64,000 nt of DNA from Scenedesmus sp. PABB004 (lineage: Eukaryota). Location: positions 1 through 64,000 of the forward strand of contig JABVCE010000035.1 of NCBI GenBank assembly GCA_014905635.1. The letters are read 5' to 3'. The translations under genes were made by a program, and so were the position numbers. Shown here piece after piece: positions 18 through 63,153 of this stretch (the stretch's first letter is position 1; each line of letters starts with the position of its first letter). Under the pieces are notes generated by a model. That model saw only the letters and a list, made by a program, of their open reading frames with translations. It had not been told where the DNA came from and did no database searches.

Positions 18-3000
18 GTGTCGACGCTGGAGGGCACCGACACGTGGCTGCGCGTCGTCGCGGCTGAGAAGCAGGGGCTCATCAAGGCCAGCCTCACGTG
101 GCCGCCGGAGCACCTCGAGGCGCGCGCACACCGCCCGCGCGCGCACGGCGCGGCGGGGGCCGGCCGGGGCTGCGCCCCGGCCCCTCCTGTGCGGCTCTTG
201 GTCCGCTCTCGGCGCGCTCGGAGCGCACATCTACACGCGCTCGTAACGTTATAACATAATGTGACACCCGCCCGCCTGCTCGCCTCCCCCTCTCAACCCC
301 AAACCCCCGCAGGCGTGCCTGAACGACCTCAACGAGCTCTTCCTCAGCGATAACGTGGCCGAGGTGGCGGAGAAGTGGAACGAGTGGCGCCGCTCCGTCA
401 TGGCCGCCGCGCTCACCGGCCGCCTGCTGCCCGTGATGCTGGCCGAGCTGCGCGCGCGCCTCACCGCGTCGGCGACCGAGACGGTGCTGGGGCAGGTCCA
501 GGACAGGTGCGGACGCGGCGCGCGCTCGCTCTCGCGCCCGCCGCGCCGCGCGCCCGCCGCCGCGCCCTCGGCCCCTCCCCTGCCGCCCGTGAACCCCTAA
601 ACCCTAAACCCTCGTCAACCCCCGCCCGCAGGTTTTGGGCGTTTGCGTCGCAGCCGCCCGTGCGCATCATGGAGGTACCGGACGAGCAGGACCAGGAGCC
701 CGTGCAGATGGAGGCGCCGCGGCTCATGGCCGCGGTCTGGGGCGCGGGCGCGCTCGGGGAGGGCCCCACCACCGTCGTGCAGCTCGACGGCCAGGGTGCG
801 TGCCGCGCGGGAGCAGTGCGGGCGGCGGCGCGCGGGCGGGCGCGGGCGCCCTCTGGGGCCGCCCTCGGCGCGCCGCCGCCCCGACGCGCTGCACCCCCTG
901 AACCCCAAAACCCCGACCCCCGCGGCGCCCCTCTGCACCCCACCAAACCCCTCCCTGCTGCCCCCCCCCGGCCTGCGGCGCAGGCAACCTGAAGGACCTG
1001 CTCACCGCCGCGCAGCTGAGCGGCAACGTGCCGCGCACCGTCAACAGCGGCACGCGCGAGAACCCCGTGTTTGACCCCGCGGCAGACCCCAAGAAGGTGC
1101 GTGCGTGCGCGCGTGCGCGCGTGCGTGTGCGTGTGCGTGCGTGTGTGTGTGTGTGTGTGTGGTGTGTGTGTGTGTGGTGTGTGTGTGTGTGTGTGTGTGT
1201 GGGTGTGGGTGTGGGTGTGTGTGTGTGTGTGGCGCGCCGCCGCGGCTGGCGCGCGCGGGGCGGCGTCTTGGGTGGTCGCGCGGGGCTCTGGGGTTGGCCA
1301 GCGCTCCCTCCCCTGACGCCAATGCCCGCGCCCGCCCGCGCCCGCCCGCGCCCGCTGGACAGTCGCGGGACAGCCACAAGCTGCGCGAGAAGCTGCTGGA
1401 GCACAAGCCCAATGCCGTGCTCGTGGCGACGTGCAGCCCGCAGGCGAAGCAGATCAAGGACGACATGGAGAAGATCAGCCAGTACACCGAGAGCGAGTGC
1501 GTTGGCGGTTTCTTTGCTGTGTGATGTTATGACATTGTTATGACGTCAAGACCCTCTTGTGTGTTGTTTTTGTTGAGCGGTGTTGTTGCCGTCGCCTGCG
1601 TCGTCTGTTTGGCCGGTGTTGCTTGCAACAGGTATGCTGTGCGCAACAGTCTGGCTGCTGCAAGCAACACCGCCCAAACAGACGACGCATACAAGCGTCT
1701 GGTTTGTGTTGATGCATGGCTTGCACGCCCCGCGCCCCGCGCCCACCCCGCCCACGCCCCCCGCCCGCCCGCGCAGCCCGCGGTTCAAGGACGACCTGCT
1801 GCCGCACCTTGAGAACAAGCGCGTGGAGGTGGTCTGGGCGGACGACCAGGTCGCAAACCTCTGGGCAGCCAGCGAGGCGGCGCGGGCTGAGTTCCCAGAC
1901 TACTCCTTCCTGGTGCGCGCCTGCTGGTCTTTGCTGTGTGTTGTTGCGTGCTTTTGTGTGTTGTCGTGTGTTGTTTGGTGGTGTCGCGTTTGGCGCTGCG
2001 TTGGGTGCCCGGCGCGCGCGCCGCGCGCCGCCGCCCTCCCCACGACCCGCGCTCGCTCCCGCTGCCTCACACTGCCTCCCCCCCTCACCCACCCACACCC
2101 ACCCACACGCACACACGCACACACGCACACACACACGCACGCAGGTGCGCAAGGCGGTCGGCCTCGGCCGCATGGCCCTCGACCCGCTCGCCATCGTCGC
2201 GGTGCTCTGCGGGCGGCGGCGCGAGGTGCTCTCGCTGCGCCTGCACGACCTGCAGGCCCTGCTGCCGCGCGAGGCGCTGGAGCAGCGCCTCGAGCAGGCG
2301 CGCACGGGGGGGGGGGGGGGGGGGGGGGCGGGCTCGCGCGCGCGGCGGCGCGCCAGTGCCGGCGCACGCACGCGGCGCCCGCGCCTGCTACAGCTCTGCC
2401 GCTGGCTCCCCCTCCTCCGGCCCCCGCCCCGGCACCTCACCAAGCGCCCTAAACCACCACTCTCCGCCTGTCCAAACACACCACCAAACACACGCACACA
2501 CAAGCGCAGACGCTCATCACCGCGGTGGCCCAGGTCGGCGTGGACCTCAACGCCGTCGCCGCCAACCCCTGGCGCGCGGCGCCGCTCGCGTTTGTGCCCG
2601 GCCTCGGCCCCCGCAAGGCGCGCGCGCTGCTCGCGGCGATCAGCGCGAACGACAACCACGTCAAGCAGCGCACCGACCTGCTGCACACGGTGCGAGGCAG
2701 GCTAGAGGCAGGCCGCGGGGGAGCAGGGCGCCGGGGGGGGGGGGGGGGGCGTGGCTCGAGCCGGCGGCGCGAGCCGGCGGTGGTGCGGCGAGCGGGCGGG
2801 CGCACGAGCCTGACGCTGCCGGGGCCTGCTCACCGCCCCGCCCCGCCCGCGCCACGCGCCACGCGCCGCCCCGGCCGCGCGCAGCCCAACGACGCCGACA
2901 TCTTTGGCGGCGCGCCGCCGAGCGACCTGCAGCAGCTCTCGCCGGTCGTGTTCCGCAACGCCGCGCCCTGCCTGCGCGTGCGGCGCGGCGAGGTCGCAGC

Positions 3001-6000
3001 GCTGCAGAACGAGGAGGAGTTTGACGCCCTCGACGACGCGCGGATCCACCCGGAGAACGAGGCGCTGCTGCAGGCGCGCGGCGGGATGCCGGGCTGTGGA
3101 TGCCAGGCTGTGGATGTCCGGGAGGGGGGGGGCAGGCGCGGACGCGGGCGGGGCCGCGGCGTGGCGCGATGCGTGGCGCGGCGGCCGGCGCGCGCGCGCG
3201 CGGCGGCGGCCGCGGTCGCGGCGCGGCGCGTGGTGATGACCATGGTCACGGTGTTTGTGGCCGTCGTCATCACCACGCGCCGCGCCGCCGCCGCCGCCGC
3301 CCGCCCGCGCCGTGCCCCCCTTTGCGCGCGCCACCCCGCGCGCACGCGCGCCAACGCTCCCCCGCTCTCCCTCCACCCTGCGCCCCCCCCCCCCCACACA
3401 CACACACCTGTGCGCAGGTCATCCTGGAGGAGGCGTACCACGAGTCGGTGGAGGCCGGCACGGGCGTGGACGTGCGCGTGGCGATCGAAAACCCCATGCC
3501 GCTGCAGCAGGCGCGGCGCGGCGCGCGCCGGCTCGCTCGCCCGCCGCGCGCCGCCGCGCGCGCGCCCGCGCGCCCCGCGCCTCACCAGCCAACCCTCCCC
3601 TGCTCCGCCCGCGCGGCGCGCAGCTGGACCTGTTCAGCGTGGCCGAGGCCAACAAGGCCGACCACCGGCTGACCACGCTGGTCGACATGATGCAGGCGCG
3701 GCGGGGTGTAGGACTCGCCAGGCCGCCGGACGCCCGGGCCGCGCCCGCACGCGCACCCCCACGCGCGCCGCCAACGCCGCCACCGCCGCCGCCGCCACCG
3801 CGCCCGCCGCGCCCGCCGCGCCCGCCGCCCGGCGCGCAGGAGCTGCTGGCGCCGTACGGCGAGCTGCGGCTCGCGGGCGGCGCGCCGGACGACGAGGAGG
3901 CGTTCTACCTGCGCCACGGCGAGACGCCCGAGAGCCTGCGGGTGGGCGCGGCGGCGGGGCCTGTTTCACGGGCGGGGCCCGCCCTGGCCCCCGCCGCGGC
4001 CGCCCCCCGGCTCCGCCCCTTGCCGACCGCGCTGCAACGCCCGCCCTGCACGCCCGCGGCGCTGCCGCGGCGTCGCTTGCAGGAGGGCAAGCTGGTGGAG
4101 GCCAAGGTGGTGTGGGTGGGCGAGGCGGAGGTAAAGGTGGTCATACAGAGCAACAACATGGAGGCCCTCATCCCCCAGGCGCGCTGTTGTTTTGTGTGAC
4201 TGTTATGTTATGACTGTCAGTTTGACGTGTCGTGAGAGGTGGTTTGACTTGTTGTTGTGTGTGTCCGCCGGGAAGTCCGCGCCTCTTCAGCCGTCACACA
4301 TAACATAACAAGTCAAACCACCAGTCATGTCATGACGAGTGAAACAATGGTGGCCGCGCGATAGCTTGGCGCGCTGACGAGCGCCCGCCGACGCCGCCGA
4401 CCGCCCGCGCGCGCCGCGCGCGCCGCAGGTCTTTGCGTCGGACGAGCTCGGCGCGACGCCGCTCGGGCAGCGCTTCACCATGGGCCAGGTTTGCTCGCGC
4501 GCGCCGCCGCCGCCACGCGCCGCTCTGGCTGCCGCTCTGGCCGCCGCCGCCGCCGCTGCTGCCACACACGCACACGCACACGCACAAAGCCACGCGCACG
4601 CTCACCCGCGCGCGCGCGCGCAGGTCGTGACCGCGCGCATCAAGCGCGACGACCAGGCGTCAGAGGTGTACTACGATGACAACCAGCGCCGCCGGTGCGC
4701 CGCCCCCGCCCGCACGCGCGCCGCCCGCGCGCGCGCGCCGCCCGCCCGCGCGCCGCCGCGTCCGCCGCCCCCGCCGCGCGCGGGGAGATGCACCAAGGCA
4801 GCCATGGTCTGTCGGTGTGACGAAGCACGGCGGCGACAGCGTCGCGCGGCTCTGTCACATGGACAGACCATGGCGGCCTTGATGCATCTCCCCGCGCGCG
4901 GCGGCGGCCCCGCACGGCAGCCTGCTGCGTGCGCCGCCGCGGCACCGCGCGCGGGCCCCGCGGCGCGCCGCCGTGCCGCCCGCCGCCCCCGCCGCGCGGC
5001 CGCCTCGCGCGCCTCTGCCGCCGCCGCGCCTGCCGCGCGTGATGATGCGCGCCTCCCACGTCCTGTCACTGTGTTACTAACAGGTACACCATGACGCTCA
5101 CGACCGCGAGCAAGGACCTCAACGACTTTGCGCGCTGGGAGCGCGTGTACTGCATGGTGCGCCGCCGCCGCAACTGCAGGCAGCAGGCAGCAGGCCGCGC
5201 GCGCGGCGGGCGCAGCGCAGCACAGGCGGGCGGCGGGGGGCAGGCGCCGCGCGCGGCGCGCCAGGCGGCCGCGCTGAGCGCGCCGCTGCCGCCGCCGCCG
5301 CCGCCGCCGGCGCGTCTGCCGCCGGCAGGAGGAGGACAAGTCGTACAAGCCCCCGAGCCGCGCCGCCGCCGCCGCCGACGCCGCGGTCGCGGCCGGCGCG
5401 GCGACGCCGGGCGGCACGCGGCTGCCGAAGCCGCGCGGGCCGCTCGCGCGGCGGCCGATCAGCCACCCGCTGTGGCGCAACGCGCCCCTCGGCGAGGTGC
5501 GCCGCCGCGCCGCCGCGCCGCGCACTCGCCGCCTGCCGCCGGCGCCGCCCGCCCGGCCCACTCGCCGCGCTCCCCCTGCCCCGCCCCTCGCCCCCAGGTG
5601 GCTGAGGAGCTCACGGACGCGCCGCCGGGCGCGGTGCGCTTCCGGCCCGTGCGCGGCTCGCTCGCGGAGCAGCTGAGCCGCCTGTACGTGACGTTCAAGC
5701 TCGCCGACTTGTCCTCGGGTGCGCTTGCGATTTGGCCCGCCTGCGCGCGCGGCGTGCGGCGCTGCGCTGCGCTCGCAGCACGCCGGGCCCGGCGCGGCGC
5801 GCCCGCAGCACGCCCGGCGCGGCGCCGCCCACGCCCGTGCCCTCGGACCGCCGCCCACGCGCCGACCGCGCCCCGGCGCCGCGCGCTGCGCCGCCCCGCC
5901 GCGCCACAGGCCCGCTGCTCGCGAGCGTCAAGGCGCTGGAGCCGGCGGACAAGCCGGCCAAGTCGGCGGGCCTGGCGACGCCGCTGCGCATCGAGGTCCC

Positions 6001-7496
6001 GGGGCGCCCCGGGGGCGGCAAGTATGAGACGTACGACGACCTGGATGAGGTCATTGCGCGGTGAGAGGGGGGGGGGGGGGGGGGCGGAGGCAGGGCGGCG
6101 GAGGCAGGGCGGCGGAGGCAGCGGACGAGGGGAGCGAGGGAGGGAGGAGCGGGCGAGGAGGGAGGGGAGCGGGCGGCCCGCTCGGCGGGGCGGGGCGGGG
6201 CGGGGCGGGGCCGCGGGCTGGCGCGTGGGTCGGCAGCCGGGCGGCCGGGCGGCCGCGCTGACGGCTGTGCGGGCGGCGGCGCAGGTACGTGGAGCCCGTG
6301 GTCGAGCGCGCGACGGAGGTCGCGCACCACCGCAAGGCGGTCGCGGGCGACGAGGAGAAGATCAAGGCGAAGCTCACCGCGCAGCTCACGACGGCGGGCG
6401 CGGGCGCCGGTGCGCGCGGCGCGCCGCCGCGCCGCGCGCGCGCTCGGCGCGGCGCGGCGCCGCGCGCGCGCTCGGCGCCGCGCCGCGCGCCGCACACACA
6501 CACACTCACACACACACACACACACACTCACACACGCCCCGCGCCGCCAGGCGTGTACGCGGTCGCGCTCTCCGCGGCCAACGCTGGCCTCGGCGAGATC
6601 TGGTTTGGCAGCCAGGGGCGCGGCGCGACGGGCACCGTGTACCGCGAGCTCTTCACGCTCACGCCCTCCGGCTACGTCTTCCGCGGCGCGCTGCACCCGA
6701 CGCTGGAGCACGTGCTGTCAGCGTTCAAGGCAAACCCCAACTACGTGTGCGTGGCGCGGCGGCGTGGCGCTGCGGCGAGGGCGGCGGCGAGGGGCGGCGG
6801 CGAGGGGCGGCGGCGAGGGGCGGCGGCGCCGCGCTCACGCGCGCCGCGCCCGCGCGCGCCCGCCGCCGCCGCGCAGCAAGCAGGAGGCGCTGCGGCGCAG
6901 CGGGCAGGTGCCCGGCGGCGGCGCGGCGGCGGCGCGGGCTACGGCGCGCCGGCCGGCGGGCAGGGCGGCTACGGCGCGCAGCAGCCCAGCGGCGGCTACG
7001 GCGCGCAGCAGCAGCCCGTCGGCGGCTACGCCAGCGCGCAGCAGCCCGTTGGCGGCTACGGCGCGCCGCAGCCCGGCGGTGGCGGCTACGGCGGCGGCGG
7101 CTACGGCGGCGCGCCGCCGGCGGCCGCGGCGGCGGCGATGACGGCGGCCGCGGCGGCCGCGGCGGCGGCGGCGGCGGGCGGCGGCTACGGCGGCGGCGGC
7201 GGCGGCTACGGCGGCCCGCCCGGGGGCGGCTTCCGGCCGCCCGGCCCGCCCGGCCCGCCCGGCCCGCCCGGCCCGCCCGGCCCGCCCGGCGGCGGTGGGT
7301 ACGGCTACGGCGGCGGCCCGCCCGGCGGCGGCGGCTACGGCGGCCCGCCCGGCGGCGGCGGCTACGGCGGCGGCCCGCCGCTGCCGGGGCCGCCCGGCGG
7401 CGGCTACCAGGCCGCGCCGTACGGGGGGGCCCGCCGGGGCCGCCGGGCTACGCGCCGCCGCCGCCGCAGCAGCAGGCGTACGGCTACGGACGGTGA
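18..7496 (+). CDS. SPT6: Transcription elongation factor SPT6 (5'-partial, >20 exons)
   Basis: Spliced exons give SPT6 motifs in order: YqgF-like region ([16 protein letters not shown]), [22 protein letters not shown], Hh[38 protein letters not shown]1-like region ([17 protein letters not shown]), tandem SH2 ([35 protein letters not shown]) and a Gly/Tyr/Pro-rich tail ending YGYGR-stop at 7496. Two apparent frameshifts in the last exon. Confidence 0.93.
595..612. repeat. Short interstitial telomere-like tract (CCCTAAA)x2.5 in an SPT6 intron
   Basis: ccctaaaccctaaaccct about 20 nt upstream of the 3' splice site at 631. Confidence 0.6.
1098..1231. repeat. (GT)n/(GC)n microsatellite in SPT6 intron
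   Basis: Long interrupted gtgtgt run directly after the donor site. Confidence 0.9.
1597..1689 (+). ncRNA. Intronic fold-back hairpin (pre-miRNA-like) 1 in SPT6
   Basis: tgcgtcgtctgtttggccggtgttgcttgca (1597-1627) pairs with tgcaagcaacaccgcccaaacagacgacgca (1659-1689): 31 bp with 1 mismatch. The structure is seen; function is inferred. Confidence 0.5.
3218..3288 (+). ncRNA. Intronic fold-back hairpin 2 in SPT6
   Basis: 23-bp perfect stem (3218-3240 with 3266-3288) extended by catggtcac/gtggccgtc with G:U pairs and a 7-nt loop. Confidence 0.4.
4228..4332 (+). ncRNA. Intronic fold-back hairpin 3 in SPT6
   Basis: ggtggtttgacttgtt (from 4238) pairs perfectly with aacaagtcaaaccacc (to 4322), extendable on both sides; unusually AT-rich for this genome. 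Confidence 0.4.
4771..4904 (+). ncRNA. Intronic fold-back hairpin 4 in SPT6
   Basis: 51-nt arms (4771-4821 and 4854-4904) are reverse complements except at about 4 positions. Confidence 0.55.
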
Positions 7497-7824
7497 CCGC
7501 GCGCGCGGGCGGGGCGAGGTCGCGCGGGGCGCGGGGCGGGCTCGGACTTGGTGGCGCGGGGCGCGGGGCGGGCTCGGACCTGCGCTGCGTTGGTTGGTGG
7601 GTAACCAGCGCGCATGCGGTCGCGGGAACAACGGTGGCGGCCGCTGAACCACCGCGGGCATTCTTTTTTTGAACGCACGCTCGCGACGCGGCGCCGCCGA
7701 CACCGCGGCGTGTTCTCCGCGCGCCTCGACCGGCTCTCGCGCCATGGCGCGCCCAGCGACCCGGCGGCGCGGCCCGGCCTGAGCGCGCGAGCAGCGAGCG
7801 CTGCCGCTGCCCCGCACGCACGCC

Positions 7825-8889
7825 ATGCTGCGCCTGGTGGCCGGGCCGGCTCCGGGGCAGGTGCACCTGGCTCCTGGGGACGCGGTGGAGCACGAGCCGG
7901 GCGCGTTGCGCTTCGGCCCGGACGCGGCGGCGGCGCACGGCGGCGGCGCGCTGCCGCTCGCCGCTGCCTTCAGCGCCTCCCCCGCGCTCGGGCAGCAGCT
8001 GCACGCGTCGTTCCAGGCGCTGCTGGGTGAGTCGGGCACGCGGCAGCAGGGGCGCGTTGGGCCGCGCCGCCCGGCTGCGCGGCGATGAGTGCGCGCTGTC
8101 GCCGCCGCGCACGGCGCCGCCGACGCCGGCCGCCCCCGTGCCGCCCCCGCGCCGCTCCGCAGCCCAGCTGCAGCCATGTAGCGCGCTGGCCCTCGCCGCG
8201 GCGTTCGATGGGCGGGCGGAGCAAGCGGCGGGCGCTGCGGTCGTGCTCGCGGTGGCGGCGACGGAGCCGCCCGACGCGACGGAGCTGTCCTGCGAGGCGG
8301 ACGCCACGCAGGCGACTGCCGACGAGGGCGGCGCGGCGCCGCCTGCGCCTGCGGCCGCGGAAGCGGCGGTGCGCACGCCAGGCGCGCCAGCAGCGGGCGC
8401 GGGCGCCGGCGTGGGCAGCGCCTCGCTGCTGCCCTCGATGGTGCCTGAGACCTGCCTGGAGCTGCTGCCCCCTGAGCCGGAGGCGGCGGCAGCCCCCGGC
8501 GCCGCACTCGGCGCCGAGCGGGCGCCGGCCGAGCAGGGGTGGGCGCCCGCGGCGCAGCAGCCGTGCGAGGTGCCGGTCGATGCAAGCATACCGGCGACGC
8601 CGCTGGAGGAGGAGGTGCAGCAGCTGCTGCAGCAGGCGCAGCAGCGAGAGGCGCCGATGCAGGAGCAGGCGGGCCTCGAACCGCGGCCCGCGCCAGAGAG
8701 CGGCGAGCAGCCGCCGGCGCCGCAGCAGCGGCAGCCGCTGGCGCCCGCCGACCAGAACCAGCAGCCGCTCGCGCAACGCCAGCCCACCTCGGCCGGCAAG
8801 TTCGCGGGGCGGCTGCTGGAGCAGCTGGCGGCGCTGCCAGCGCAGCCGCCGGCACAGTCTGGCGCCGATGCGGCTGCGCCGCCGCCGCC

Positions 8890-8952
<63 letters not shown>

Positions 8953-11052
8953 CTGGCCGCCGCCAGTGCCCTGGCAGCAGCACCAGCAGCACCAGCAGCC
9001 CGCCTGGCAGCAGCAGCAGCCGTGGCAGCAGCAGCTGCAGCCGCCGCCCTGGCAGCCAGCAGCCGCTCCGCACGCCGGTGGCATGCAGCCGCCCGTGCGC
9101 CCTGGCCCGCAGCAGGCGGCAGGGGCCAGCGGGCACTCAACGCCGTGGGCGCCCTCGGCAGCAGCGAGGGCTTACCGGCAGACCAAGCCCTTCAGCGCTC
9201 CTCGCCCTGCGCGGCCTGGCGCCCCGCCGGCAGCGGGCTCAGCAGCAGCAGCGGGCACGCCCAAACCCGACGCCCGCCCGCCCGCCGCGCCCGCGGCTAG
9301 CGCCGGCGGCTTCCGCGTGCCCCGCTCAGCGGCTGAGACCGCCGCAACAGCGGCAGCGGCGGTGGCAGCTGCCCTCGCAGCGCTCGGCGCCGTCGGCGGC
9401 GCGGCAGACGGGAGTGCCTGGTCACGGCCGCCGCAGATGCCTGACGTGGCAGCGCCGGCACAGGCCGCGGCCGCCCCTGCAGCAGCTGGCTTCAGCACAG
9501 GCGCTGGCCGCAGCATCCAGGTGTCGGCGGCGGCCATGGCACGCGCGGCGGCGCTGCTCAAGGACGAGCTGGGGCCGGACGCAGCCCAGCAGGATGGTGG
9601 CGCGCCAGTGGCAGCAGCGCAGCCGCCAGCGGTGCAGCCGCCAGGCGCGCAGCAGGCAGCGACTGGCTTCAGCACGGGCGCCGGCCGCGGCCTCCAGGTG
9701 TCGGCGGCGGCCATGGCGCGCGCGGCGGCGCTGCTCAACGACGAGCTGGGGCCGGACGCAGCCCAGCAGGATGGTGGCGCGCCAGTGGCAGCAGCGCAGC
9801 CGCCAGCGGTGCAGCCGCCAGGCGCGCAGCAGGCAGCGACTGGCTTCAGCACGGGCGCCGGCCGCGGCCTCCAGGTGTCGGCGGCGGCCATGGCGCGCGC
9901 GGCGGCGCTGCTCAAGGACGAGCTGGGGCCGGACGCAGCCGAGCAGGATGGCGGCGCGCCAGTGGCAGCAGCGCAGCCGCCAGCGGTGCAGCCGCAAGTG
10001 CAGCCAGCAGCTGGCGGGCGCGCGGGCGCGGCGCAGGACAAGCCGCAGCAGGGTGAGGAGGAGGACCCGCTGCTGGCGGCCATGCAGGCGGCCGCGGCGG
10101 CGGCGGGCAGCGGTGGCTTTGTGACAGCCGGCGCCAGCCGCGTGACCGTGTCGGTGGCGGCCCAGGCACGCGCGCGCGGCCTCCGGCTGTTCGACGACCC
10201 GGACACAGAGCGCGGCGGCGGCGACCTCGCGGCGGCGCCCGCCGAGGGCGCTGGGCCGCCCTGCCTGCCGCGCCAGGCGCAGCAGCCGTGCTTCTTCAAA
10301 GCCTTCAAGCTCCAGCCTGGCGACGGCGCCGGCAGCGGCGGCCGCGTCGCCCAGGTGAGCCGGCCAGGCGGCGGCGGCAGCGGAGGCGGCTTCAAGCCCC
10401 CCAGGCCGGCGGCCAAGCAGCCGGCGGCACCGCCGCCAGCAGCGCAGCAGGCGGCACCATCGCCGGGCGCTGCAGCGGCTGAGGAGCCGCGCGCCAGCGG
10501 CCTGCTGTCCTTGGACGAGGCGGCCGCCCTGGACCTGATCCTCGCGGCAGCCGACAGGTACGCCGCAGGAGCGGCGGCGGTCGCCGCCGCGGCCGAGCCG
10601 CCTGGCGACGGCGCCCCGCCGCCCGGGGGCGTCGGGCAGAGAGCAGCGCAGGGCTCGGCGCCGCCGCTGGCCGCAGACGGGCTGCCGGCTGCGCACGCAG
10701 CAGCGGCGCCCGGCGATGCAGCACCCAGTGATGCGGCAGCGCTCGCCCACGCGCCCGGCGACACCACGGCCGCAGCGGCAGGGCAAGCCTCTGCCGCCGC
10801 TTGGCAAGCCGCCTGCGCGACGTTTGCCAGCGAAGAGGGGCTGCCCAGCCCGCAGGGCAGCGGCGAGAGCCTCGGCTCCCTGCTGTCTGGTACCATCAGC
10901 TCAGACAGCGACCTGGGCAGCCCGCCGCCGCGAGGCAGTCCCGGCGCCGCAGCGCACGGCACAGCAGGCGCCGACCACGGCGCGCACGAGCCGCCGCCGC
11001 CTCAGCCTAGCGGGGCAGACGGCGGCGGCCAGGGGCTGGGTGCCAACGTGGC

Positions 11053-11097
<45 letters not shown>

Positions 11098-14000
11098 GCA
11101 GCAGGAGGACGAGCCGAGGCCGGACGGGGCGGAGTCGGAGCCCGCAGCTGCAGCAGCAGCGGCGGCACCCGCGGAGCAGGAGGAGCCGCCGGCGGCGCAG
11201 GAGCGGGAGCCAGCGGCGCCGAAAGCCCAGCAGCCGGCGCCTGCCGACGCTGAGCGGGAGTCGAGCGCAGCGCAGCAGCAGCTGACGCGGCTGCGCCGCG
11301 CGTTGTGCGTGGTTGACCACCGCGTGGACGCCTCGGCAGCGTGCTGCTTTGCTGGCATGCAGTGGGCAAGCGGCGACGCGGTGCTGGTGGCGGCGCCCGC
11401 GGCGGCGCGCGGCGCTGCGTTTGCGCAGGCCCTGCGCGAGCGCGGGCTGCTGCCGCCGGCCGCGGGCGCGGCTGACGTGACGGCGGCGGCAGCGGGCTGC
11501 GGCTGCTGCGCGCGCCAGCTGCTGCTGGCAGAGCTCGCAGTGGACGGCAGCGGCGGCGGTGTGCGGCTGCTGTTGGCGCCGCTGCCAGACGCCTCGGAGT
11601 CGGTCGCTTCAGCGACGCCGCCGGCGGCGGGCGCGTGCGGCAGCGGCCTGTGGCGGGGGCTCGCCGGCGCCAAGCGCCGGCACGCGCCAGAGGACGCAGC
11701 GGCGGAGCAGCGCGCGGCGGCGCCGCGAGTGCTCGCGGCCAGCCCGGCGGCTGAACGAGCCACGCCGGCAGCCGCCGGCGGGCGGCAGGGCTGGGGCACG
11801 CCCGCGGGCGACGTCGTACCGGCCACGCCGTCGTCCGCCGCCGCGTCGGGCGCGAGCGGCGGCGCGGCCGGCACGCCGCTCAGCAGGCTGGCAGCCTCCT
11901 GGCCCGCGCGGCTCGCGGCGGCGGCAACGCCGGCGGCGGCGGCGCCGTCAGAGGTGGCAGTCGTGCCGGCCACGCCATGCGCCGGCGCGACCGCAGAGGC
12001 GAGCGCGCCGGCCGACGGCTGCCACCCGCCGCAGGCGGTGCAGGACACGGTGGCCTGGAGCGAGCCGGCATTCGAGCTGGCGCCGCGCCCGCCGCCGGCT
12101 GAGCAGGAGCAGCAGCATGCGGCGGGCGCGCCGGCGCTGGAGCAGGAGCAGCCGGGCCGAGCAGCGGAGCGGGCGGCAGAACCGGGGGCAGCGGAAGCAG
12201 CAACAGCAGCGGCAGCGGGGCAGGCCGTGGACGAGCTGGCGCCCACGCTGGTCATCGACCAGGCCGTGTTTGACTTGCCAGGAAACGGTGAGGCAGCGGC
12301 AACGCGCAACGCCCTGGCGCAGCAGACGCCCGCAGCGGTGCAGCAGGAGGAGCCGGCGGGGGCAGCCGCAGCGGGCGCGCAAGACCCGGAGCCGGCGGCC
12401 GGCGACACGCTGGCGCTAGACGATCTGTGGGGGCCGCCACCCGCGGTGCCAGCTGCGCCCGAGGCGTGCGGCGACACGCTGCCGATCGACTGCTGGCTGG
12501 CGCCGCCGCCGGCGCCTCCGGCGCTGCAGCGCCCGGCGGGCGGGGGTGGCGCGGTGGAGCAGGTGCCGCCGGCACCGCCGGACGCGGGCGGCGGCTCTGG
12601 CCCTGCTGCGGCCTCGGGCGGCTCTGGCTGTGACTACAGCCAGCTGCCCGAGTTTTGCACGGCCGAGCTGCGCGCGGAGCTGGCCGGCGACCGCGCGGCA
12701 ACGGCGGCGGCGGCGGATGGCGCACGGGGCCTCAAGCGCAAGTCTGGCGGCCACGGGCAGCTGCCGCCGCCAGCCGCCGACGCCGCGGCCAGCCCGCCCG
12801 CCAAGCGGCGCAGCTGCTCGCCGGCCGCGCCGGCGCCGGGCGGCGGCCTGGCGCTGCAGACCGCCGGCGGCCGGCAGGTGGCGCAGGACCCGGCAGCCCT
12901 GGCCGCCTTCCAGCGCCGCATGGGCTGGGCGGCGCCAGAGCCCGAGCCGGAGCCGGGGCCGGCGCGGCAGCCCCCGCAGCAGCATGAGTCGGTCGCTGAC
13001 ACGGCGCCGACCGGCGGCGGCCTCGCGCTGCAGACCGCCGGCGGCCGGCAGGTGGCGCAGGACCCAGAAGCCCTGGCGGCGTTCAGGCGCCGCATGGGCT
13101 GGGCGGAGCCTGAGGACCAGCAGCAGCAGCAGCAGCAGCAGCCGGGCGAGCGGCAGCAGCAGGACCAGCAGCAGCCAGCTGCTGCGCGCGGCGGGGGTGC
13201 TGCGGCAGCAGCAGCTGCCGCGGCAGTGCCAGCGCGTGAGGCGTCGCCCGCGCCCGCGGCGCGCGCGGACCCGCCGCCACCCGCGCCCGCGCGCCCCTCC
13301 GCCGAGCCGCCCGCGCCCGCGGCGGCGGCGGCGCCCAAGCTGGCGCCCCGCATCCTGCCGCGCAAGCGCCAGCCCGGCGGCCAGCAGCCGGCGCCGGCGG
13401 CGGAGCAGGGCCAGGGGCTGCGCAAGTCGGGGCGCAAGGCCGCGTTCAAAGCCCCCGCGATGGCGGCCGGCCCCGGCCGCGGCAAGGCGCCGCGCGCCAG
13501 CGGCGGCGCCTCGCCCGGCGCTGCGGCGCGGGCGCAGCAGGGCGCCGCCGGCGCGGGAGCCGGCGGCGAGCAGCAGCCGCAGCAGAGGGCGGTGGAGGAC
13601 TCTCAGCCCAAGCTCCCCCTGGCTGCATACTTCGAGCTCGCGCGTGCTCAGGCGGCGTCGGGGTCCGGCGCCCGCGCCGGCGGCCCCGCGGGCGCCGAGC
13701 CGCCCGGCGCCGCCGACGTGGGCTGCTGGGCCGCCACGTGGCTGCCCGCCACGCCTGAGCAGGCGGCGAGCTTCAGCTTTGCCCCCGCGCCGGCCGGCCA
13801 GCAGCCGCCGGCGGCGCAGCCGGCCGACGGCGCGGCGGGCGGGGCGGCGCCGGCGCCGGCGCCGGCGGCGGCGGGCTGGGGCGCCGCGGAGGCGCGCGCC
13901 GCGCTGCTCGCGGGCGGGGCAGACCCGGGCAAGGCGTCGCCCGCGTGGGTTGCCAACCACTACAAGTGGGTGGTGTGGAAGCTGGCGGCATACGACCGCA

Positions 14001-16721
14001 AGCTGCTGCCGCCGCGGGGTCCCGGCGGGGGCGCCTGCCTGCGCGCGGGCGCCGTGCTGGCGCAGCTGCGGCGCCGCTACGCGCGCGAGGTCGGCGGCGG
14101 GGAGCGCTCGGTGCTCAAAAAGATCCTAGAGCAGGACCTGCCCGCCGGCGTGCCGATCGTGCTGTGCGTGAGCGCGGTGCGCGCGAGCGGCGGCGGCGCG
14201 GAGCGGCGCGGCAGCGGCGGCGGCGGCGGCGACGGCGACGGCGGCGGCGCCGCGCCCGCCGGCGGCGGCGCCGCGCCCGCCGGCGGCGCGCCCGGCGGCC
14301 CGCGCCGGCGCAGCGACGACGACGGCGGCGGCGGCGGCGGCGGCGGCGGCGCGCCCGCGGCGGGCGGCGGCGGCGAGGTGCTGGGCGTGCAGCTGACCGA
14401 CGGCTGGTACGGCGTCAACGCCACGGTGGACGGCCCGCTGGCAGAGCTCATCGCGCGCGGCCGCATCCAGGTCGGCGTGAAGCTGCGCGTCGTGGGCGCG
14501 GAGCTGCGCTCGGACCGCCCCGGCGAGCCGCTCGAGGCGGCGCGCTGGGCGAGCCTGCGGCTGTGGGCCAACGGCGTCAGCCCCGCGCCCTGGGACGCGC
14601 GCCTGGGGCCGGTGCCCGAGGGCCAGACCCTGCGGTGCGCGCGCGGCGGCCGGGGCGGACGCCCGCGCGGACGCCGGCCAGCGTCGCTGCGCTTGCCGCC
14701 GACCGCCGCGCCGCCGCCGCCGCCGCCGCCGCCGGCCGCCGCAGGGCGCTGTCGCTGGTGCACCCCGCGGGCGGGCTCGTGCCGCGCCTGCTGCTGCTGG
14801 TGCAGCGGTGTTATCCGCTGCAGTTTTACTGCCGCGCGAGCCGCACGTACTACACCGAGCGGTCCATGGCGGCAGCGCGGCGGCGCGCCGAGGCGAAGCA
14901 GGAGCAGGTGCGGCCGGCGTGCGTTGGAGGCGGCAGGGGCGCCGTCTCGACCCGCGCGCTGCGCACGCGCGCGCGCCGCGCTCACGCGCCCGCCGTCGCG
15001 CCGCGCAGCTCAATGCGGCGGCCGCGGCGGCGGTGCGGAGTTCGGAGCTGGCGCAGTGCAAGGCCTGGGCGGCGGCCGCCGGCGCGGGCGCCGTGGAGCG
15101 CGCGTACGCGGCGGCCGTGCTGGCCGGCGGCGGCGACGGCTGGGACGGCGGCGGCGGCGGCGCGTGCGGCGTGGGCGCCGGCGAGCTCGCGGCGTTCCGG
15201 GCGGCGCGGGAGACGCAGATGGAGGCGCAGCGCGGGCAGCGCCTCGCCGCGCTGTCGGCGGCGGCGACGGCCGACGCGGAGGCCGCGGCCGCGCGCGGCG
15301 ACAGCGACGCGGCGGCCGCGGCGGCGGCGCTGCTGCTCGCGCTGGAGTCGTCGCTCGCGATCAAGCGCTTCCGCGTAACCGGCGTGCTGCCGCGGGGCTG
15401 CGGCGGCGCCGCCGCCACGCGCGGCCACGGCGCGGCGCTGGTCAAGGTCTGGCGCGCGAGCGAGGCGCTGCAGGGGCTGGACGAGGGCCTCGTGCTGCTG
15501 GCCACGGGGCTGTCGGCCGGAATGGACGGCCGCAGCGCGACGGCCGACCTCGGCGGCCTCGGCGGCGGCGGGCTGCTGGAGCTGAGCTCGGGCAAGAGCA
15601 CGAGGTGAGCCGCGCCGCGGACGCAGCCAGCGGCAGCGGCCCGGCGCTCGCACCGGCTCGGCTCGCGGCGGCGGCGGCGGGCCGCCCACGCGACGCCGCC
15701 GCGCCCGCCCGCGCCCGCCCGCGCCCGCGGCAGCTGGGAGGTGCTCGGCGCGGCGGGGCAGCTCGCCGGCCGGCTGGGCCTCGGCCCCGCGTGGCAGCCG
15801 CGGCGCAGGGCGAGCCTGCACGAGCTGCACGAGGGCCTGCTGCGGACAGAGTTTGACTGCGCCGGCGTGCTGCTCTGGGCCGGCGAGGTCATGCAGAGTG
15901 CGTGGCGAGGCCGCGGCGCCGCCGCCGCCGCCGCGGCTGGCCGCGCCGATCGCGTTCAACGCCCGGGCCCCGCGCGCGCGCGCGCGCGGGCTCACGCGCG
16001 CCGCCGCCGCCGCCGCCGCCGCCGCTGGCGCCGCCGCTGCGCATGCAGGCGGGCGCGAGCGCTTCCAGTGGGTGTTCCTCGCGGGCGGCGGGCCGCCCGC
16101 GCCGGGGGCAGACGCGGAGCGCGGCGGCGCCGGCGCGGCGGCGCCGCCGGGCCCCTGCCTGCTGGCGGTGCGGCTGGCGGGCAACAGCCTCACGTGCGTG
16201 GACTGGCTCGAGCCGAGCAGGGCGAGCGCTGGCGGCGGCGCGCCCGGCGGCGCGGCGGCGACGCCCGCGCCCCCGCCGCGGCCGCCCGCCGCCGGCGGCG
16301 GCCGCCGCGCGAGCACGCCCGGCCCCGGCCCCGGCAGCGCGGCCAAGCCCGGTGGCGCGGCCACGCCGGCGGCGGTCGGCGCCATGCCCGGGGGCGCGGG
16401 CGGGGGCGCGCGCCGCGCCGCGCGTCGGCGGTCGTCACGCCCGCGAGCGCGCCCGCTCCGGGCCGGCGCGAACAGCTCGTCGTGTGCACGAACCTGGTGC
16501 TGCAGAGCCGGGACCGCGCCAACGGCATGTGGGTCGCCGCCGCGCCCGACACGGCCGCGCTGGCCGTGCTGTCCGCGACGGGCGCGGCGGGCCGCGCCGG
16601 CGCGGCCGGCGGCGGCGGCGGCGCGGCCGCCGAGGCGGCGGCCTGGGCGGCGCGCGAGGCGGGCGCAGTGGCGGCGCTGCGCGAGCGCGCGCGGGCGCTG
16701 GTCGAGGGCGCCGGCGCGTGA
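7825..16721 (+). CDS. BRCA2: BRCA2-like DNA repair protein (multi-exon, giant exon about 8163-14634)
   Basis: BRC-type repeats GFSTGAGRxxQVSAAAMARAAALL x3, GFVTAGASRVTVS, LQTAGGRQV x2; helical domain WVANHYKWVVWKLAAYDR; OB1 IVLCVS...QLTDGWYGVNATVDGPLAELIARGRIQVGVKLRVVGAEL...LRLWANG; later LLVQRCYP and OB3-like EFDCAGVLL. ATG 7825 splices in frame via the intron at 8027-8162. Confidence 0.9.
9488..9995 (+). repeat. Coding tandem repeat, 3 x 177 bp (59 aa), each carrying one BRC repeat
   Basis: ggcttcagcac units start at 9488, 9665 and 9842 and are nearly identical at DNA level. Confidence 0.95.
12841..13104 (+). repeat. Duplicated divergent BRC-like unit, 174-bp spacing
   Basis: GGGLALQTAGGRQVAQDPxALAAFxRRMGWA occurs twice (ctgcagacc at 12854 and 13028). 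Confidence 0.85.
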
Positions 16722-31242: not shown

Positions 31243-31341
31243 CGGGGCGGGAGGCGCGCGCGCGGGAGTGCACAAGAGTTGGCGCCACGGCAACCGAGTT
31301 GCTCCGAGAGTCACACGACTCACGCAGGGCTCAGGCCAATC

Positions 31342-31405
31342 GAAACCAGGACTGAAACCAGGACTGATATCGATATCAGTCCTGGTTTCCATCAGACCTG
31401 GTTCC
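31342..31405. repeat. Perfect 36-bp palindrome with flanking extra arm copies
   Basis: gaaaccaggactgatatc|gatatcagtcctggtttc at 31354-31389, a direct copy gaaaccaggact at 31342-31353 and a degenerate copy at 31392-31405. Confidence 0.95.
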
Positions 31406-46483: not shown

Positions 46484-48285
46484 ATGGCGCTCACCCAGAA
46501 GGAGCTGGACATCCAGATGCTGCTGGCGGCGGGGTGCCACCTTGGCACCAAGAACTGCAACTATCAGATGGAGCGCTACGTCCACGGCCGGCGCCAGGAC
46601 GGCATCTACGTCATCAACCTCGAGAAGACGTGGGAGAAGCTGCAGATGGCGGCGCGCATCATCGTGGCCATCGAGAACCCGCAGGACGTCGTCGTGCTGT
46701 CGGCGCGCCCCTACGGCCAGCGCGCGGTCTTCAAGTTTGCGCAGTACATCGGCGCCAAGTCCCTCGCGGGCCGGCACACGCCCGGCACGTTCACCAACCA
46801 GATCCAGAAGCAGTTTGAGGAGCCGCGCCTGCTCGTGCTGACCGACCCGCGCACCGACCACCAGCCGATCAAGGAGTCTGCCTACATGAACATTCCGGCC
46901 ATCGCGTTCTGCGACACCGACTCGGCGCTCACGCACGTCGACGTGGCCATCCCCGCCAACAACAAGGGCAAGCACAGCATCGGCGTGCTCTACTACCTGC
47001 TCGCGCGCATGGTGCTGCAGATGCGCGGCACCGTGTCGGCGGCGAGCCCGTGGGACGTCATGGTGCGGCGCCGCCGCGGCGCGCCGGCGCGGCGCGGGGG
47101 CCGGACGGGGGCAGCAGCAGACGCGCGGGGCAGGGCGGCGGCGGCGGAGGGCCGGGGAAGGGCGGGGCGGGGCAGAGAGCGGCAGCGGCGGCTGCAGCAG
47201 CGGCAGCAGCAGCAGCAGCAGCGAGCGCGCGCGCGCGGCGGCTGCGGCCCGCCGCGCCGCACCGCGCGGCCCGGGCGGCGCCCACGGCGCTCAGGGAGGC
47301 CGCGGGCGGCGGCGGGCCGGCAGGCGGGGCGCGCGCAGCCACCGGAGCGCCGGCGGCGGCTGGAGCAGCGCTGGCGGCTGGCGGCTGGCAGCAGCGGCGG
47401 CTGGCGGCAGCAGCGCCGGCGCCGGCTGGCGGCGGCGCGCGTCGCCACGCCCGGCACGCCCGGCACAGCCTGCTGGCAGCAGGAGGGCAGCGATCTGGGC
47501 GTCGCCGGCGAGGCGGGGCCGGCAGGCTGGCACGCCCGCGCGCAGCAGCAGCAGCAGCAGCAGCAGTGGCAGCAGCCGCCGGCTGGAGAGCTGAGCGGGC
47601 GGCGACCGCTGCGGCTCACCGCAGCAGCGGCGCCAGCGATGGCTGCTGTCTGCCTCGCTCTGCGCTTTGCTCCTCGCATGCAGCGACGCCGGCAGCAGCC
47701 GTCGCTGGCGCCGGCGGCAGCGGCGCCAGCAGCAGCGGCAGCAGGGCGTGGCCGGGCGGGCGAGCGGCAGCGCGCTCCCCGCACCTCCCGCTCGATGCCC
47801 CTCCACCGCGCCTGCGCTGCCCCTCCACCTGCTCGACCCTGGATCGCGGCCCCGCTGAACCGCTCGCCCCGCTCCGCCCCGCTAAACCCCAGGTCGACCT
47901 CTTCTTCTACCGCGAGCCGGAGGAGACGGAGAAGCCCGCCGACGAGGCCGCCGACTTTGGCGCGCCGACCGGCGAGTTTGGCGGCGCGCTGCCGGCGCCG
48001 AGCGCGCAGGACCAGTGGGCCGCGCCCGCCGCGCCCGCCGAGTTTGGCGCCGCGGGCGCGCCCGGCTTCGAGGCGGCGACCGGTGAGCGCCGCGCCGCGC
48101 CGCGCTGCGCTGCGCCGCAGCGGCGCCGCGCGCAGCAGCCCGCGCGCGCCGGCCGCCGCTCACACCCCCGCCTCGCGCCGCGCCGCGCAGGCTTCGAGGC
48201 GGCCACCGGCTTTGAGGCCGCGGCGGCGCCCGCGCCCGAGGCCGTGGCGTACGCCGCGCCGGAGGCGTTTGGCGACAAGTTCTGA
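46484..48285 (+). CDS. RPSA: 40S ribosomal protein SA (uS2), 3 exons
   Basis: [83 protein letters not shown]; exons 46484-47062, 47893-48082, 48191-48285. Confidence 0.98.
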
Positions 48286-57559: not shown

Positions 57560-60143
57560 CCGCGCTGGGTCGTCAACGCGGGCTCCCGTGCGGGGGAGCC
57601 CGAGTTGACAACCCATGCGTGGGGCCCCGCGCATGCACGGCCACGACGTCCGCGGAACGCGCGCGCGCCGCGCGGCACTCATGACATGAACGCCGCACAG
57701 CCCGCCGGCGTCGCGGCCGTGCATGCGGCCGCGCGCGACGCGGCGCGCCTGCCGTGACGACACACGAGCGCGGCGTTTTGTGCTGCGGCGCGGCGGCCAG
57801 GCCCCGCAACATGGGGGGGGGGGGGGGGCTGCGCGGCGGCGCTGATCGCGCCCATTTTGGCTGAGCCGCCCGCGGGTCCTGGAGGGGGTTGGAGCTGGTG
57901 GGCGTTGGCCGGCGCGGGGCGGCGGTCGCCGCGGGCCACGGCCCCGCGCGCGACGCCCAGCCGGCGCACGCCGGCCCCGGAGTGTTGAGTCCACAGAGTC
58001 TCCACTAGCCGCCCTGCACGGCCTACTCGCGTCTACCGGTCATCCTTCCCCAAGCTCCTAACATTCGGTGCACCACGTCGCAGGGGGCGCGACTCTGCGA
58101 GTGACGGCCGGCGGGGCGCGGCGCGGCGCGGCGTGTGCTGCGTGTGCGCCTGGGCGGGCTTGCCGCGGTTGGTGTGTGGTGCCCCTGCTGGTGGCGGCCT
58201 GCCCCACGTCGTTTGCGTGAGATGAGGCGGGGTTTGCGCTGGTTTTCCCCCGCTGCCCCTGTGGCCCGGTAGGGCCTGCGTGGCGTGGTTGCACGGGTCA
58301 AGAGGACCAGCTACCGTCCTTAAAAAGGGGCGCGGGCCCGATGTGCGCGAGCATACAGGGTAAATGACCTTGACCTTGACCCATGAACGTACGTTGGTGT
58401 TCGTGCCGCGGGTCAGCGCCGCCGCGCAGCCCCCTGCTGGGGGGCCAGCGGCCCGAGCATCTGCCTGCTGCGCCACCACCCTCTAACGCCGACCAACACC
58501 GACCATGGGCAGCCTGCGAACGCCGGCGCTCGCAGGCTGCGCATGTTCGGTGTTGGCGGCGCGCGCGGCGCGCGCGGCGCGCGCGGCGCGCGCGCGCGGC
58601 GGTGTCAGCATGGCCGCCGCTGGCGCGGTGTGTCTGGCCCCGCGCCCGACGCGACGGCGCCGTCGCGCGCTCGGCCTGGCCGTGGTTGACCGCCATGCCC
58701 GCCAACCACGCGCAAGGCGGCGGCGGCCGGCGCGGTGAGGCGGTGGCAGTGGCACTGCGGCGGCCGGCGTGGCGAGGCGGTGGCAGTGGCACACTGTGGG
58801 CGCCGGCACCCTCAACGCCGACCGACACCGACCGCGGGCAGCCTGCACACACCGGGAGCAGCCTCGAGCTCCGACGTCCGGCGAGCGCCGGAGCTCGAGG
58901 TTGCTCCCGGCGCTTGCAGGCTGCCCGCGGTCGGTGTTGGCCGCGGCGGCGCGCGCGCGTGCGGCGCTGTCAGCCAGCCGTCTACGCACGGGCGTGGTCG
59001 GGGGAAGGGGGGCACCGCACGCCGAGCCGGCGGGAAGTTAACAAGCCCATTCCTGAGCCGGCGCTCGCACACGCAGCACACGCGCGCCCCACAGCCGCCG
59101 CTCACCCCGCGCGCGCCCGCAGCTCACGCACGCCCCGCTGCGTCGGGGCGGCCCTCGGCAGGTCCGGGGCCAGGTGGGGCAGACTGCTGCTGGCGGTAGT
59201 TGGTGTCGGCCACGACGTGCGCTGGCGGCGTCGCCATGCCAGACAACGTCCAGGTCGACACCAACCATCGCCAGCAGCAGCAGTCCGCTGGCGCGCGCCG
59301 ACGCCCGCGCCCTCGCAACCCAGCAGGGCAGCGCCAGCGGCCCCAGCCGCCCCAGCGCGCCAGCGCCAGCGGCCACCGCCGGCCCCAGCGCGCCGCCGCC
59401 GCCGTTGCTCGGGGGGCGCCCGGGCCGCGCCCCGCGAGTCTCGCAGCAGCAGCTTCTGCTGACCGTTCCGCGTCACGCGGTGCCGACGCGTGACGGTTAG
59501 CAGAAGCTGCTGCGCGACAGCCGAGCGGCGCCTCGCGCCCCAGCCCCCCTTCGGAGCGGCGCGCCCGTGGGCCTGCACCCGGCGCTGGCAGCCGCAGGTC
59601 TGGAAGGCCACGGGCGCGCCGCTCTGCCAGGCGGGCGCGGGCGGTCCGCGCGCCGACCGCGGCTGCGCAGCGCACGCGCGCGCCCCACAGCCGCCGCGCC
59701 CCGATCGCCGCGTGCGGCGCGCCGGCTGCTCCGTGGCCGCGCGCCTGCGCCGCAGCGCGCGGCCCGCTCGCCCCGCGCGCGGGCGCGCGGGGCCCGCGCC
59801 ACGATCAAGCCGCGACCCCGAGGCTGCCGCCCACCTGGCAGGCCGGAGCAGCGGCGCGAGGCGTGACGGTTGTGTGTGGTTGCGGGCCGCCACGAAACCT
59901 TCACGCCTCGCGCCGCTGCGGCCTGTTCGGTGTTGGGGGCGCCGGCGCGCGCGGCTCTGGCAGCGCCGCGCGCGCCGCGCCCGCTGCGTCAGGGCGGCCC
60001 TCGGCAGGTCCAGACCCGTGGGCAGACCGCTGCTGGCGATAGCTGGCGTCGGCCACGACGTGCGCTGGCGGCGTCGCCATGCAAGGGCACGTGGAGGTCG
60101 ACACCAACCGTCGCCAGCAGCAGTCCGCCGGCGCGCGCCGACG
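57560..60143. ncRNA. Cluster of at least 9 long fold-back hairpins (candidate polycistronic pre-miRNA/hairpin RNA locus)
   Basis: Inverted repeats at 57566-57615, 57630-57727, about 58329-58408, 58487-58561, 58822-58940, 59179-59288, 59441-59517, 59848-59919 and 60022-60128, with no credible coding exon in the region. Confidence 0.55.
59134..60143. repeat. Dispersed direct duplication (about 170 bp) carrying paralogous hairpins
   Basis: About 59134-59305 matches about 59980-60143 (cgctgcgtcRgggcggccctcggcaggtcc...ggtcgacaccaaccRtcgccagcagcag). Confidence 0.9.

Positions 60144-60932: not shown

Positions 60933-63153
<2,221 letters not shown>

Follow-up and report, generated by a model that had tools for sequence, protein, structure and literature searches.

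What explains four long hairpins in four separate introns of one elongation-factor gene? The question is raised by the SPT6 gene at the start of contig JABVCE010000035.1 from Scenedesmus sp. PABB004 (assembly GCA_014905635.1), of which positions 1 to 64,000, referred to below as the window, were analyzed. An initial annotation made from the letters of this DNA proposed that SPT6 either hosts several intronic small-RNA precursors or regulates its own splicing or elongation through intron structure. The hairpins are a real feature of the locus. The reading preferred here, to which a probability of about 0.5 is given, is that they are young, lineage-specific Dicer-substrate precursors, of the precursor microRNA (pre-miRNA) or hairpin small interfering RNA (siRNA) type, similar in kind to the intronic miRNAs of Chlamydomonas.

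The window has a GC content of ~80%, and its source is, to judge from the sequence, a sphaeroplealean green alga. The identity of the host gene as SPT6, assigned in the initial annotation, was confirmed by a match of exon 8 to Pfam HHH_7 (E 1e-11) and by collinearity of the exons with SPT6 of Tetradesmus obliquus (P0008), which extends across the four hairpin introns, at 52–92% identity. Weak Pfam matches were additionally obtained for exons 5–6 (SPT6 YqgF) and exons 20–21 (SPT6 SH2, SH2_2). The part of SPT6 in the window covers the orthologue of T. obliquus from residue ~813 to its C-terminus, and the 5′ part lies outside. The host gene, the four introns (in window numbering), and the hairpins are as follows:

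18..7496, plus strand: SPT6 3′ half, 22 exons and 21 introns (gene model, Pfam, and tblastn with P0008)
1497..1776, plus strand: SPT6 intron 5, host of hairpin 1; 280 nt, 60% GC
1597..1689, plus strand: hairpin 1; 93 nt, 40 pairs, 31-position outer stem, core GC 0.58
3074..3417, plus strand: SPT6 intron 9, host of hairpin 2; 344 nt, GC-AG
3196..3310, plus strand: hairpin 2; 23 perfect pairs, nine loop-side pairs, and a GC-repeat extension
4179..4428, plus strand: SPT6 intron 13, host of hairpin 3; 250 nt, GC-AG, 60% GC
4226..4334, plus strand: hairpin 3; 26-pair core, core GC 0.43, weaker pairing on either side
4695..5083, plus strand: SPT6 intron 15, host of hairpin 4; 389 nt
4767..4908, plus strand: hairpin 4; 60 pairs with five symmetric mismatches and a 4-nt loop, free of bulges

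The spliced SPT6 protein is gapless across introns 5, 9, 13, and 15; hence the hairpins are intronic and hide no exon. Furthermore, read-through open reading frames (ORFs) of relatives depart from the SPT6 protein at the same four positions, indicating that the introns themselves are old. The GC-AG class is very common in this gene (6 of 21 introns).

The four stems were found where they had been initially placed, and each is much more stable than expected from its composition. Folding z-scores against 200 dinucleotide shuffles are −9.7 (1590–1700), −10.6 (3196–3310), −6.8 (4190–4335), and −16.2 (4765–4910), and for each hairpin no shuffle was equally stable (0/200). The outer stem of hairpin 1 comprises 30 pairs and one C-C mismatch, and hairpin 2 contains 23 Watson-Crick pairs (3218–3240 with 3266–3288), 13 of which fall within a GC-only low-complexity tract; the pair counts first reported for these two hairpins were right, and hairpin 4 proved longer than reported. 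The core of hairpin 3 pairs 4238–4263 with 4295–4322 and includes a 2-nt bulge. Hairpin 4, the top stem of the window, has three G-U pairs among its 60, and its five mismatches are all 1 × 1. No bulge occurs in the outer stems of hairpins 1, 2, and 4. The stems measure 90–140 nt with 33–60 pairs and a minimal folding free energy index of −1.0 to −1.3, and their core GC content is 43–66%, compared with an average of 86% GC in non-SPT6 introns. The host introns are four of the five longest in SPT6; the core stems begin 59–138 nt past the donor and stop 87–179 nt short of the acceptor. In a window-wide scan, the four stems score 96, 73, 70, and 52, ranking 1, 3, 4, and joint 8 among the 13 stems that score at least 45. 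Twenty block-shuffled windows yielded three stems of at least 45 altogether, with a maximum of 52, which makes hairpin 3 the weakest of the four.

The proposal that these are intronic small-RNA precursors is partly supported, its basis being shape: both the anatomy of the hairpins and the Chlamydomonas precedent fit it. The hairpins lie mid-intron in a protein-coding gene, clear of exons, and present a fold-back with a ~21-nt duplex of few mismatches. Each contains 10–19 candidate 5′-U 21-mers with at most four unpaired bases, a measure of capacity rather than of production; the duplex thresholds (≤4 unpaired, ≤2 asymmetric) are those of plant annotation practice. In Chlamydomonas, 9 of 18 high-confidence and 7 of 24 medium-confidence miRNAs are intronic according to the parts of PMC4817775 consulted, where they are described as DCL3-dependent, independent of splicing, and without effect on the host mRNA. 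The SPT6 hairpins resemble cre-miR1157 of C. reinhardtii (Cre12.g537671 intron 22), likewise a long mid-intron stem-loop on the sense strand of a protein-coding gene and not a mirtron (PMC4817775). By contrast, DCL3 processing was shown for the C. reinhardtii loci (PMC4817775), and the SPT6 stems are known as sequence only. Under the precursor reading, each hairpin would have been born by local inverted duplication of intron sequence and not by insertion of one shared element, and a DCL3-like enzyme would cut ~21-nt duplexes from the SPT6 pre-mRNA or the excised intron, with no need for splicing, as with cre-miR1157. SPT6 would serve as a constitutive host transcript, its own mRNA little affected, and any targets would lie elsewhere in the genome. 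Transcription through the hairpin introns is presumed from the intact, conserved SPT6 gene, and at least two of the four hairpins are expected to yield discrete small RNAs.

Several results, including those on relatives in the next paragraph, weigh against this reading. An excess of G-U over A-C mismatches, which would mark the transcribed strand, is not evident in the four SPT6 stems (5 vs 3, from few mismatches) or across all 12 hairpins (15 vs 13, p = 0.85). None of the hairpins has an Rfam match at the gathering score, the best sub-threshold miRNA hit reaching 29 bits against a cut-off of 110. Plant-type targets within the 64 kb are no better than a penalty of 3.5, and these hits are mostly GC-rich. 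Moreover, the probability of finding four hairpins among 21 introns by chance is 0.0008 at a background of 2% and 0.19 at 11%; because SPT6 was picked for its stems and this range is wide, the clustering of hairpins in SPT6 is suggestive and not established.

Conservation was tested with the intron read-through peptides of relatives, by the compatibility of their back-translation with an inverted repeat, a test that detected 9 of 12 positives and none of five negatives from the window. None of 19 peptides from relatives passed; 7 of the 19 derive from introns 9 or 13, the only hairpin introns with usable peptides (none for 5 or 15; P0095, 36 aa, was left out). Only two cover a hairpin position, namely P0004 (intron 9, 80 aa), whose ORF is close to exon 9 of the window, and P0083 (intron 13, 70 aa), and the hairpin signal is absent in both; a further intron-13 peptide, P0093 (36 aa), also failed, and P0043 lacks intron 13 altogether. 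Among the matches listed, peptide similarity to the hairpin introns is low-complexity noise only. A metagenome scan with the exon-8 alignment returned 13 loci and no close algal SPT6, the best (L001) being 32–37% identical to P0008, and a scan of viral contigs with exon 9 returned none. The stems thus look lineage-specific as far as these sequences reach. Lineage specificity fits chlorophyte miRNAs, fits neutral fold-backs equally well, and counts against an old feedback circuit. Chlamydomonas miRNAs are not conserved even in Volvocaceae, as stated in the part of PMC5511227 consulted, so that missing homologues are to be expected.

Three other classes of precursor or intronic RNA were considered and rejected. 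A mirtron is excluded by core stems that end apart from the splice sites, only the weak outer fold of intron 13 reaching a donor. Box C/D or H/ACA small nucleolar RNAs (snoRNAs) do not agree with near-perfect stems that have no pocket, and Rfam snoRNA scores are ≤17.5 bits (boxes were assessed by eye). The Chlamydomonas family of AGO1-associated small RNAs of >26 nt was rejected for the four stems, which are unrelated to one another. A 13-nt look-alike of the core of that family, as given in the part of PMC10226591 consulted, lies on the loop side of hairpin 3 (4263–4275); it was matched in 5 of 100 shuffles and is probably due to chance.

The distribution of stems over introns brings in a neutral explanation. 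The comparison covers 70 introns of 13 genes predicted by our own gene finder, which are not all of the genes in the window, and the boundaries of two introns of the 3-hydroxyacyl-CoA dehydrogenase gene (HADH) are off by some bases. With a stem score of at least 40 taken to define a hairpin-bearing intron, 4 of 21 SPT6 introns qualify, compared with 1 of 49 others (Fisher p = 0.026, post hoc). That one is intron 1 of RPSA (uS2), with a score of 52, and the initial statement that nothing comparable occurs in introns of other genes does not hold. It was proposed as an alternative that the stems are neutral fold-backs, in which template switching makes short inverted duplications that persist in long, tolerant SPT6 introns, arm-to-arm conversion keeps the arms matched, and at most heterogeneous siRNAs leak out; we regard this as possible without being probable. 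The introns of SPT6 exceed those of the other genes in length (median 191 vs 120 nt, p = 7e-5) and in AT content (21% vs 14%), which by itself raises the chance of insertions, and the gene may gather insertions generally. The absence of a G-U/A-C strand bias and of a hairpin signal in two relatives also agrees with neutrality. Neutral birth and decay should, however, leave half-decayed stems, and the scores are bimodal: five introns score 52–96, the remaining 65 score ≤38, and no intermediates occur among the latter. Furthermore, neutrality would require four independent events at a similarly low state of decay within 3.3 kb, and must account for three outer stems free of bulges. The comparators in the window are as follows:

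47624..47718, plus strand: RPSA intron 1 hairpin, stem score 52
58487..60129, strand not assigned: six intergenic hairpins in the same size class, forming a cluster that includes two paralogous pairs (58487–58561, 58819–58943, 59184–59280, 59441–59517, 59848–59919, and 60021–60129)

RPSA intron 1 (47063–47892) is, at 830 nt, by far the longest predicted intron in the window. The intergenic cluster sits upstream of HADH (ATG at 60933). Its members c1 and c2 have both arms in common and differ by a compensatory change of two pairs; c2 additionally contains an inner stem. In c3 and c6 the flanks and the loop correspond, and four stem pairs differ between them on one side while remaining paired when read on the minus strand. 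The minus strand gives the better fold for c1, c2, and c6, and is the predicted transcribed strand for c1, c2, c3, and c6. From these features, the cluster looks like a duplicated, polycistronic small-RNA precursor locus, and its paralogous pairs suggest that the genome keeps such hairpins in non-coding transcripts as well. The compensatory pattern could also have come from arm-to-arm gene conversion, as the neutral explanation would have it, and two sequences cannot prove selection. On the minus strand at 58514–58610, a branch-point word and an acceptor-like site (score 10) overlap or adjoin c1, where splicing and folding might therefore compete. Elsewhere, an AT-rich hairpin at 31336–31410, between two convergent genes, contains a direct repeat internally and has a palindrome at its center.

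The origin of the four stems was further examined through their relatedness and copy number. As first claimed, the hairpins are mutually unrelated: the longest word common to the 5′ arms of any pair is 5–8 nt (shuffle p ≥ 0.075). The TG-rich 5′ arms of hairpins 1 and 3 continue the TG-rich tract that follows the donor, which suggests that the 3′ arm was copied in inverted orientation from neighboring sequence. A third, upstream copy in intron 13 can likewise pair with the 3′ arm of hairpin 3 (−20.8 kcal/mol, vs −26.7 for its own arm); hairpin 3 thus lies within a three-copy local repeat, a sign of slippage that agrees with neutral fold-backs. A tandem-repeat origin of the stem cores was tried and rejected, as was a seed common to hairpins 2 and 4 (an 8-nt word, p = 0.075). 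The 8-mer GACCATGG occurs three times on the plus strand (3238, 4866, and 58501), each time within a hairpin (SPT6 introns 9 and 15 and cluster member c1; pairwise p 0.055–0.075). In viral contigs, three of four 19–20-nt arm patterns had no exact match, and the fourth matched three loci (L014–L016) with identical flanks and no extension, which were treated as chance.

These data also bear on the view that the stems are remnants of miniature inverted-repeat transposable elements (MITEs) or fold-back transposons of four different families. Such elements would be short, AT-richer inverted repeats that lengthen introns, as seen here, and the extended hairpin 3 is flanked by one 5-nt direct repeat; no convincing target-site duplication was found around any of the four hairpins, since hairpin 1 has no flanking direct repeat and hairpins 2 and 4 have 3–5-nt repeats of GC runs (all of these counts being without a chance control). 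The hairpins share no termini, the arms of hairpins 1 and 3 match their flanks in composition, and a search of the 64-kb window found each arm only once. A MITE origin is consequently considered improbable. An assembly artefact from fold-back reads is more improbable by far: the arms differ by substitutions and bulges, the loops are distinct, the flanking exons align collinearly with the orthologue, and the paralogous hairpins elsewhere in the window have diverged. The assembly may nevertheless hold indel errors, given that two frame changes in a low-complexity tract are needed for the last SPT6 exon (6877–7496), which encodes a Gly/Tyr/Pro-rich tail, to reach the stop at 7494–7496; these may stem from sequencing indels or from introns missed by the model. 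In this exon, Argonaute-hook repeats (Trp-Gly) were not seen.

The second part of the initial proposal, self-regulation of SPT6, found no support. In this explanation, the stems act in cis on the nascent transcript, with Dicer cleavage set against splicing or with slowed use of splice sites, so that the rate of elongation would act, by feedback, on the amount of SPT6 itself. Its appeal lies in the presence of four stems in a single elongation-factor gene and in two published cases, both taken from the part of PMC4817775 consulted: DCL3 destabilizes Chlamydomonas mRNAs with hairpins in untranslated regions (UTRs), and Arabidopsis DCL1 cuts the precursor in its own intron 14. Splice sites were scored in 67 of the 70 introns, three HADH introns being left out. 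Intron 15 has the weakest splice-site pair of the 67, intron 15 and RPSA intron 1 together being the two weakest, the donor of intron 5 is weak, and the predicted minimum free energy fold-back of intron 13 takes in its own donor, spanning 4179 to ~4360. The four introns are, however, not significantly weaker than the remaining introns of SPT6 (p = 0.41), and the same holds when the five hairpin introns are compared with the rest (p = 0.096). Cryptic sites are not enriched: in the four hairpin introns (1,263 nt), 22 donor and 3 acceptor sites were counted, vs 178 and 72 in 9,269 nt. No good target of any arm was found in the sequenced part of SPT6, host mRNA is unaltered by intronic miRNAs in Chlamydomonas (PMC4817775), and an essential feedback should be conserved, which the two relatives lacking a hairpin signal do not bear out. 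Cis control is therefore thought unlikely. A broader version, in which SPT6 is a dedicated multi-intron host of unrelated small RNAs, in the manner of a snoRNA host, with Dicer racing splicing on the nascent transcript and SPT6 setting both its own dose and four small-RNA outputs through elongation rate, is a speculative idea of low probability.

Several observations on splicing in SPT6 were made alongside. At the end of intron 15 (5074–5083), a perfect branch-point-like heptamer stands right before the AG, and this acceptor scores lowest of the 67; use of the downstream AG at 5110 would remove nine codons in frame. A poison exon in intron 13 and a recursive splice site in hairpin 1 were rejected, with scores of 0.3–2.7 against 10th percentiles of 5.7 and 6.4 for true sites. 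Telomere-like CCCTAAA words occupy branch-point positions at 595–612.

A shared sequence signal was also noted in the SPT6 introns:

1526..1544, strand not assigned: two GTYATRAC copies 5′ of hairpin 1 (others at 248, 4207, and 4329)

The GTYATRAC palindrome has five matches in the window (248, 1526, 1537, 4207, and 4329), all in SPT6 introns 1, 5, and 13, against 0.21 expected; the motif was defined post hoc from these same sites. SPT6 introns contain 20 DTGAC half-sites (18 within the hairpin introns), and the other introns contain 4. Counted up to each loop, there are 10 against 3.1 expected from shuffles; for introns 9 and 15, from which the motif was not derived, there are 3 against 0.7. 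GTYATRAC may act as a binding site or may simply derive from the TG-rich repeats; under the speculative multi-intron host version, GTYATRAC and DTGAC words could serve as a shared handle for the control through elongation. A 21-nt stretch upstream of hairpin 3 pairs with intron 1 (−21.9 kcal/mol, 0/300 shuffles), and one unrelated site in the window pairs with it better than intron 1 does. Intron 5 contains a perfect palindrome like the cAMP response element at 1541–1548. A zygotic response element (ZYRE), with the motif as given in the part of PMC4889651 consulted, was rejected, 4324–4332 being one of four matches in the window.

Two further observations concern the surroundings of the gene. 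TGTAA is the usual chlorophyte poly(A) signal, and the window contains none on the plus strand and one on the minus strand. GTAAC follows the ends of SPT6, RPSA, and HADH (7601, 48481, and 63412 on the plus strand) and is also found at 19120, 24078, and 38171 on the minus strand; this alga may use a variant poly(A) signal. A sense copy of GTAAC is present in SPT6 intron 1 at 243. BRCA2 (7673–15856), with BRC repeats and helical and OB1 domains, begins no more than a few hundred bases from the SPT6 stop, and its ORF is very long and almost without introns.

Comparison with known systems places the precursor reading among several algal and plant cases. In C. reinhardtii, the main-text parts of PMC4817775, its locus table aside, describe no case of four unrelated stems in four introns of one gene. 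The FRA2/BolA-like 2 gene (Cre03.g164550), whose small RNAs of >26 nt are bound by AGO1, is similarly a single chlorophyte gene with several lineage-restricted intronic hairpin loci and an enlarged intron, according to the part of PMC10226591 consulted. It differs in having five related copies in one intron, with imperfect precursors of 60–80 nt that are Dicer-independent and target the host 3′ UTR (PMC10226591); the SPT6 stems are unrelated, near-perfect, and longer, lie in separate introns, and have no self-target in the sequenced part. The miRNAs of Ectocarpus, a brown alga, also belong mostly to single-member families in introns of protein-coding genes (44 of ~63 loci intronic); in the part of PMC12026948 consulted, only two clusters within 5 kb are reported, unlike the present window with its two dense groups (four stems in 3.3 kb and six in 1.6 kb). 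The Arabidopsis DCL1 intron-14 precursor, an intronic hairpin in a gene of the nuclear RNA machinery and the model for cis feedback, differs in that there is a single hairpin, cleavage of the host transcript has been demonstrated, and the host is Dicer itself (as described in PMC4817775). In the literature searched, which excluded most subscription journals, no small-RNA study of Sphaeropleales and no report of hairpins in algal SPT6 introns was found.

By these analogies, the SPT6 hairpins are probably, if processed, a new instance of the chlorophyte intronic pre-miRNA type. The arrangement of four unrelated stems in four introns of one gene is unusual and may still fall within the genome background. 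If the hairpins are not processed, they are ordinary fold-backs. If they are, the pattern of intron-borne miRNAs known from Chlamydomonas would extend to a second chlorophycean order, and SPT6 would provide, next to a distinct hairpin cluster, a compact example of a host gene in which miRNAs have arisen repeatedly. Two questions would then become testable: what leads some host genes to gather hairpins, and whether such hairpins are a means of controlling an elongation factor.

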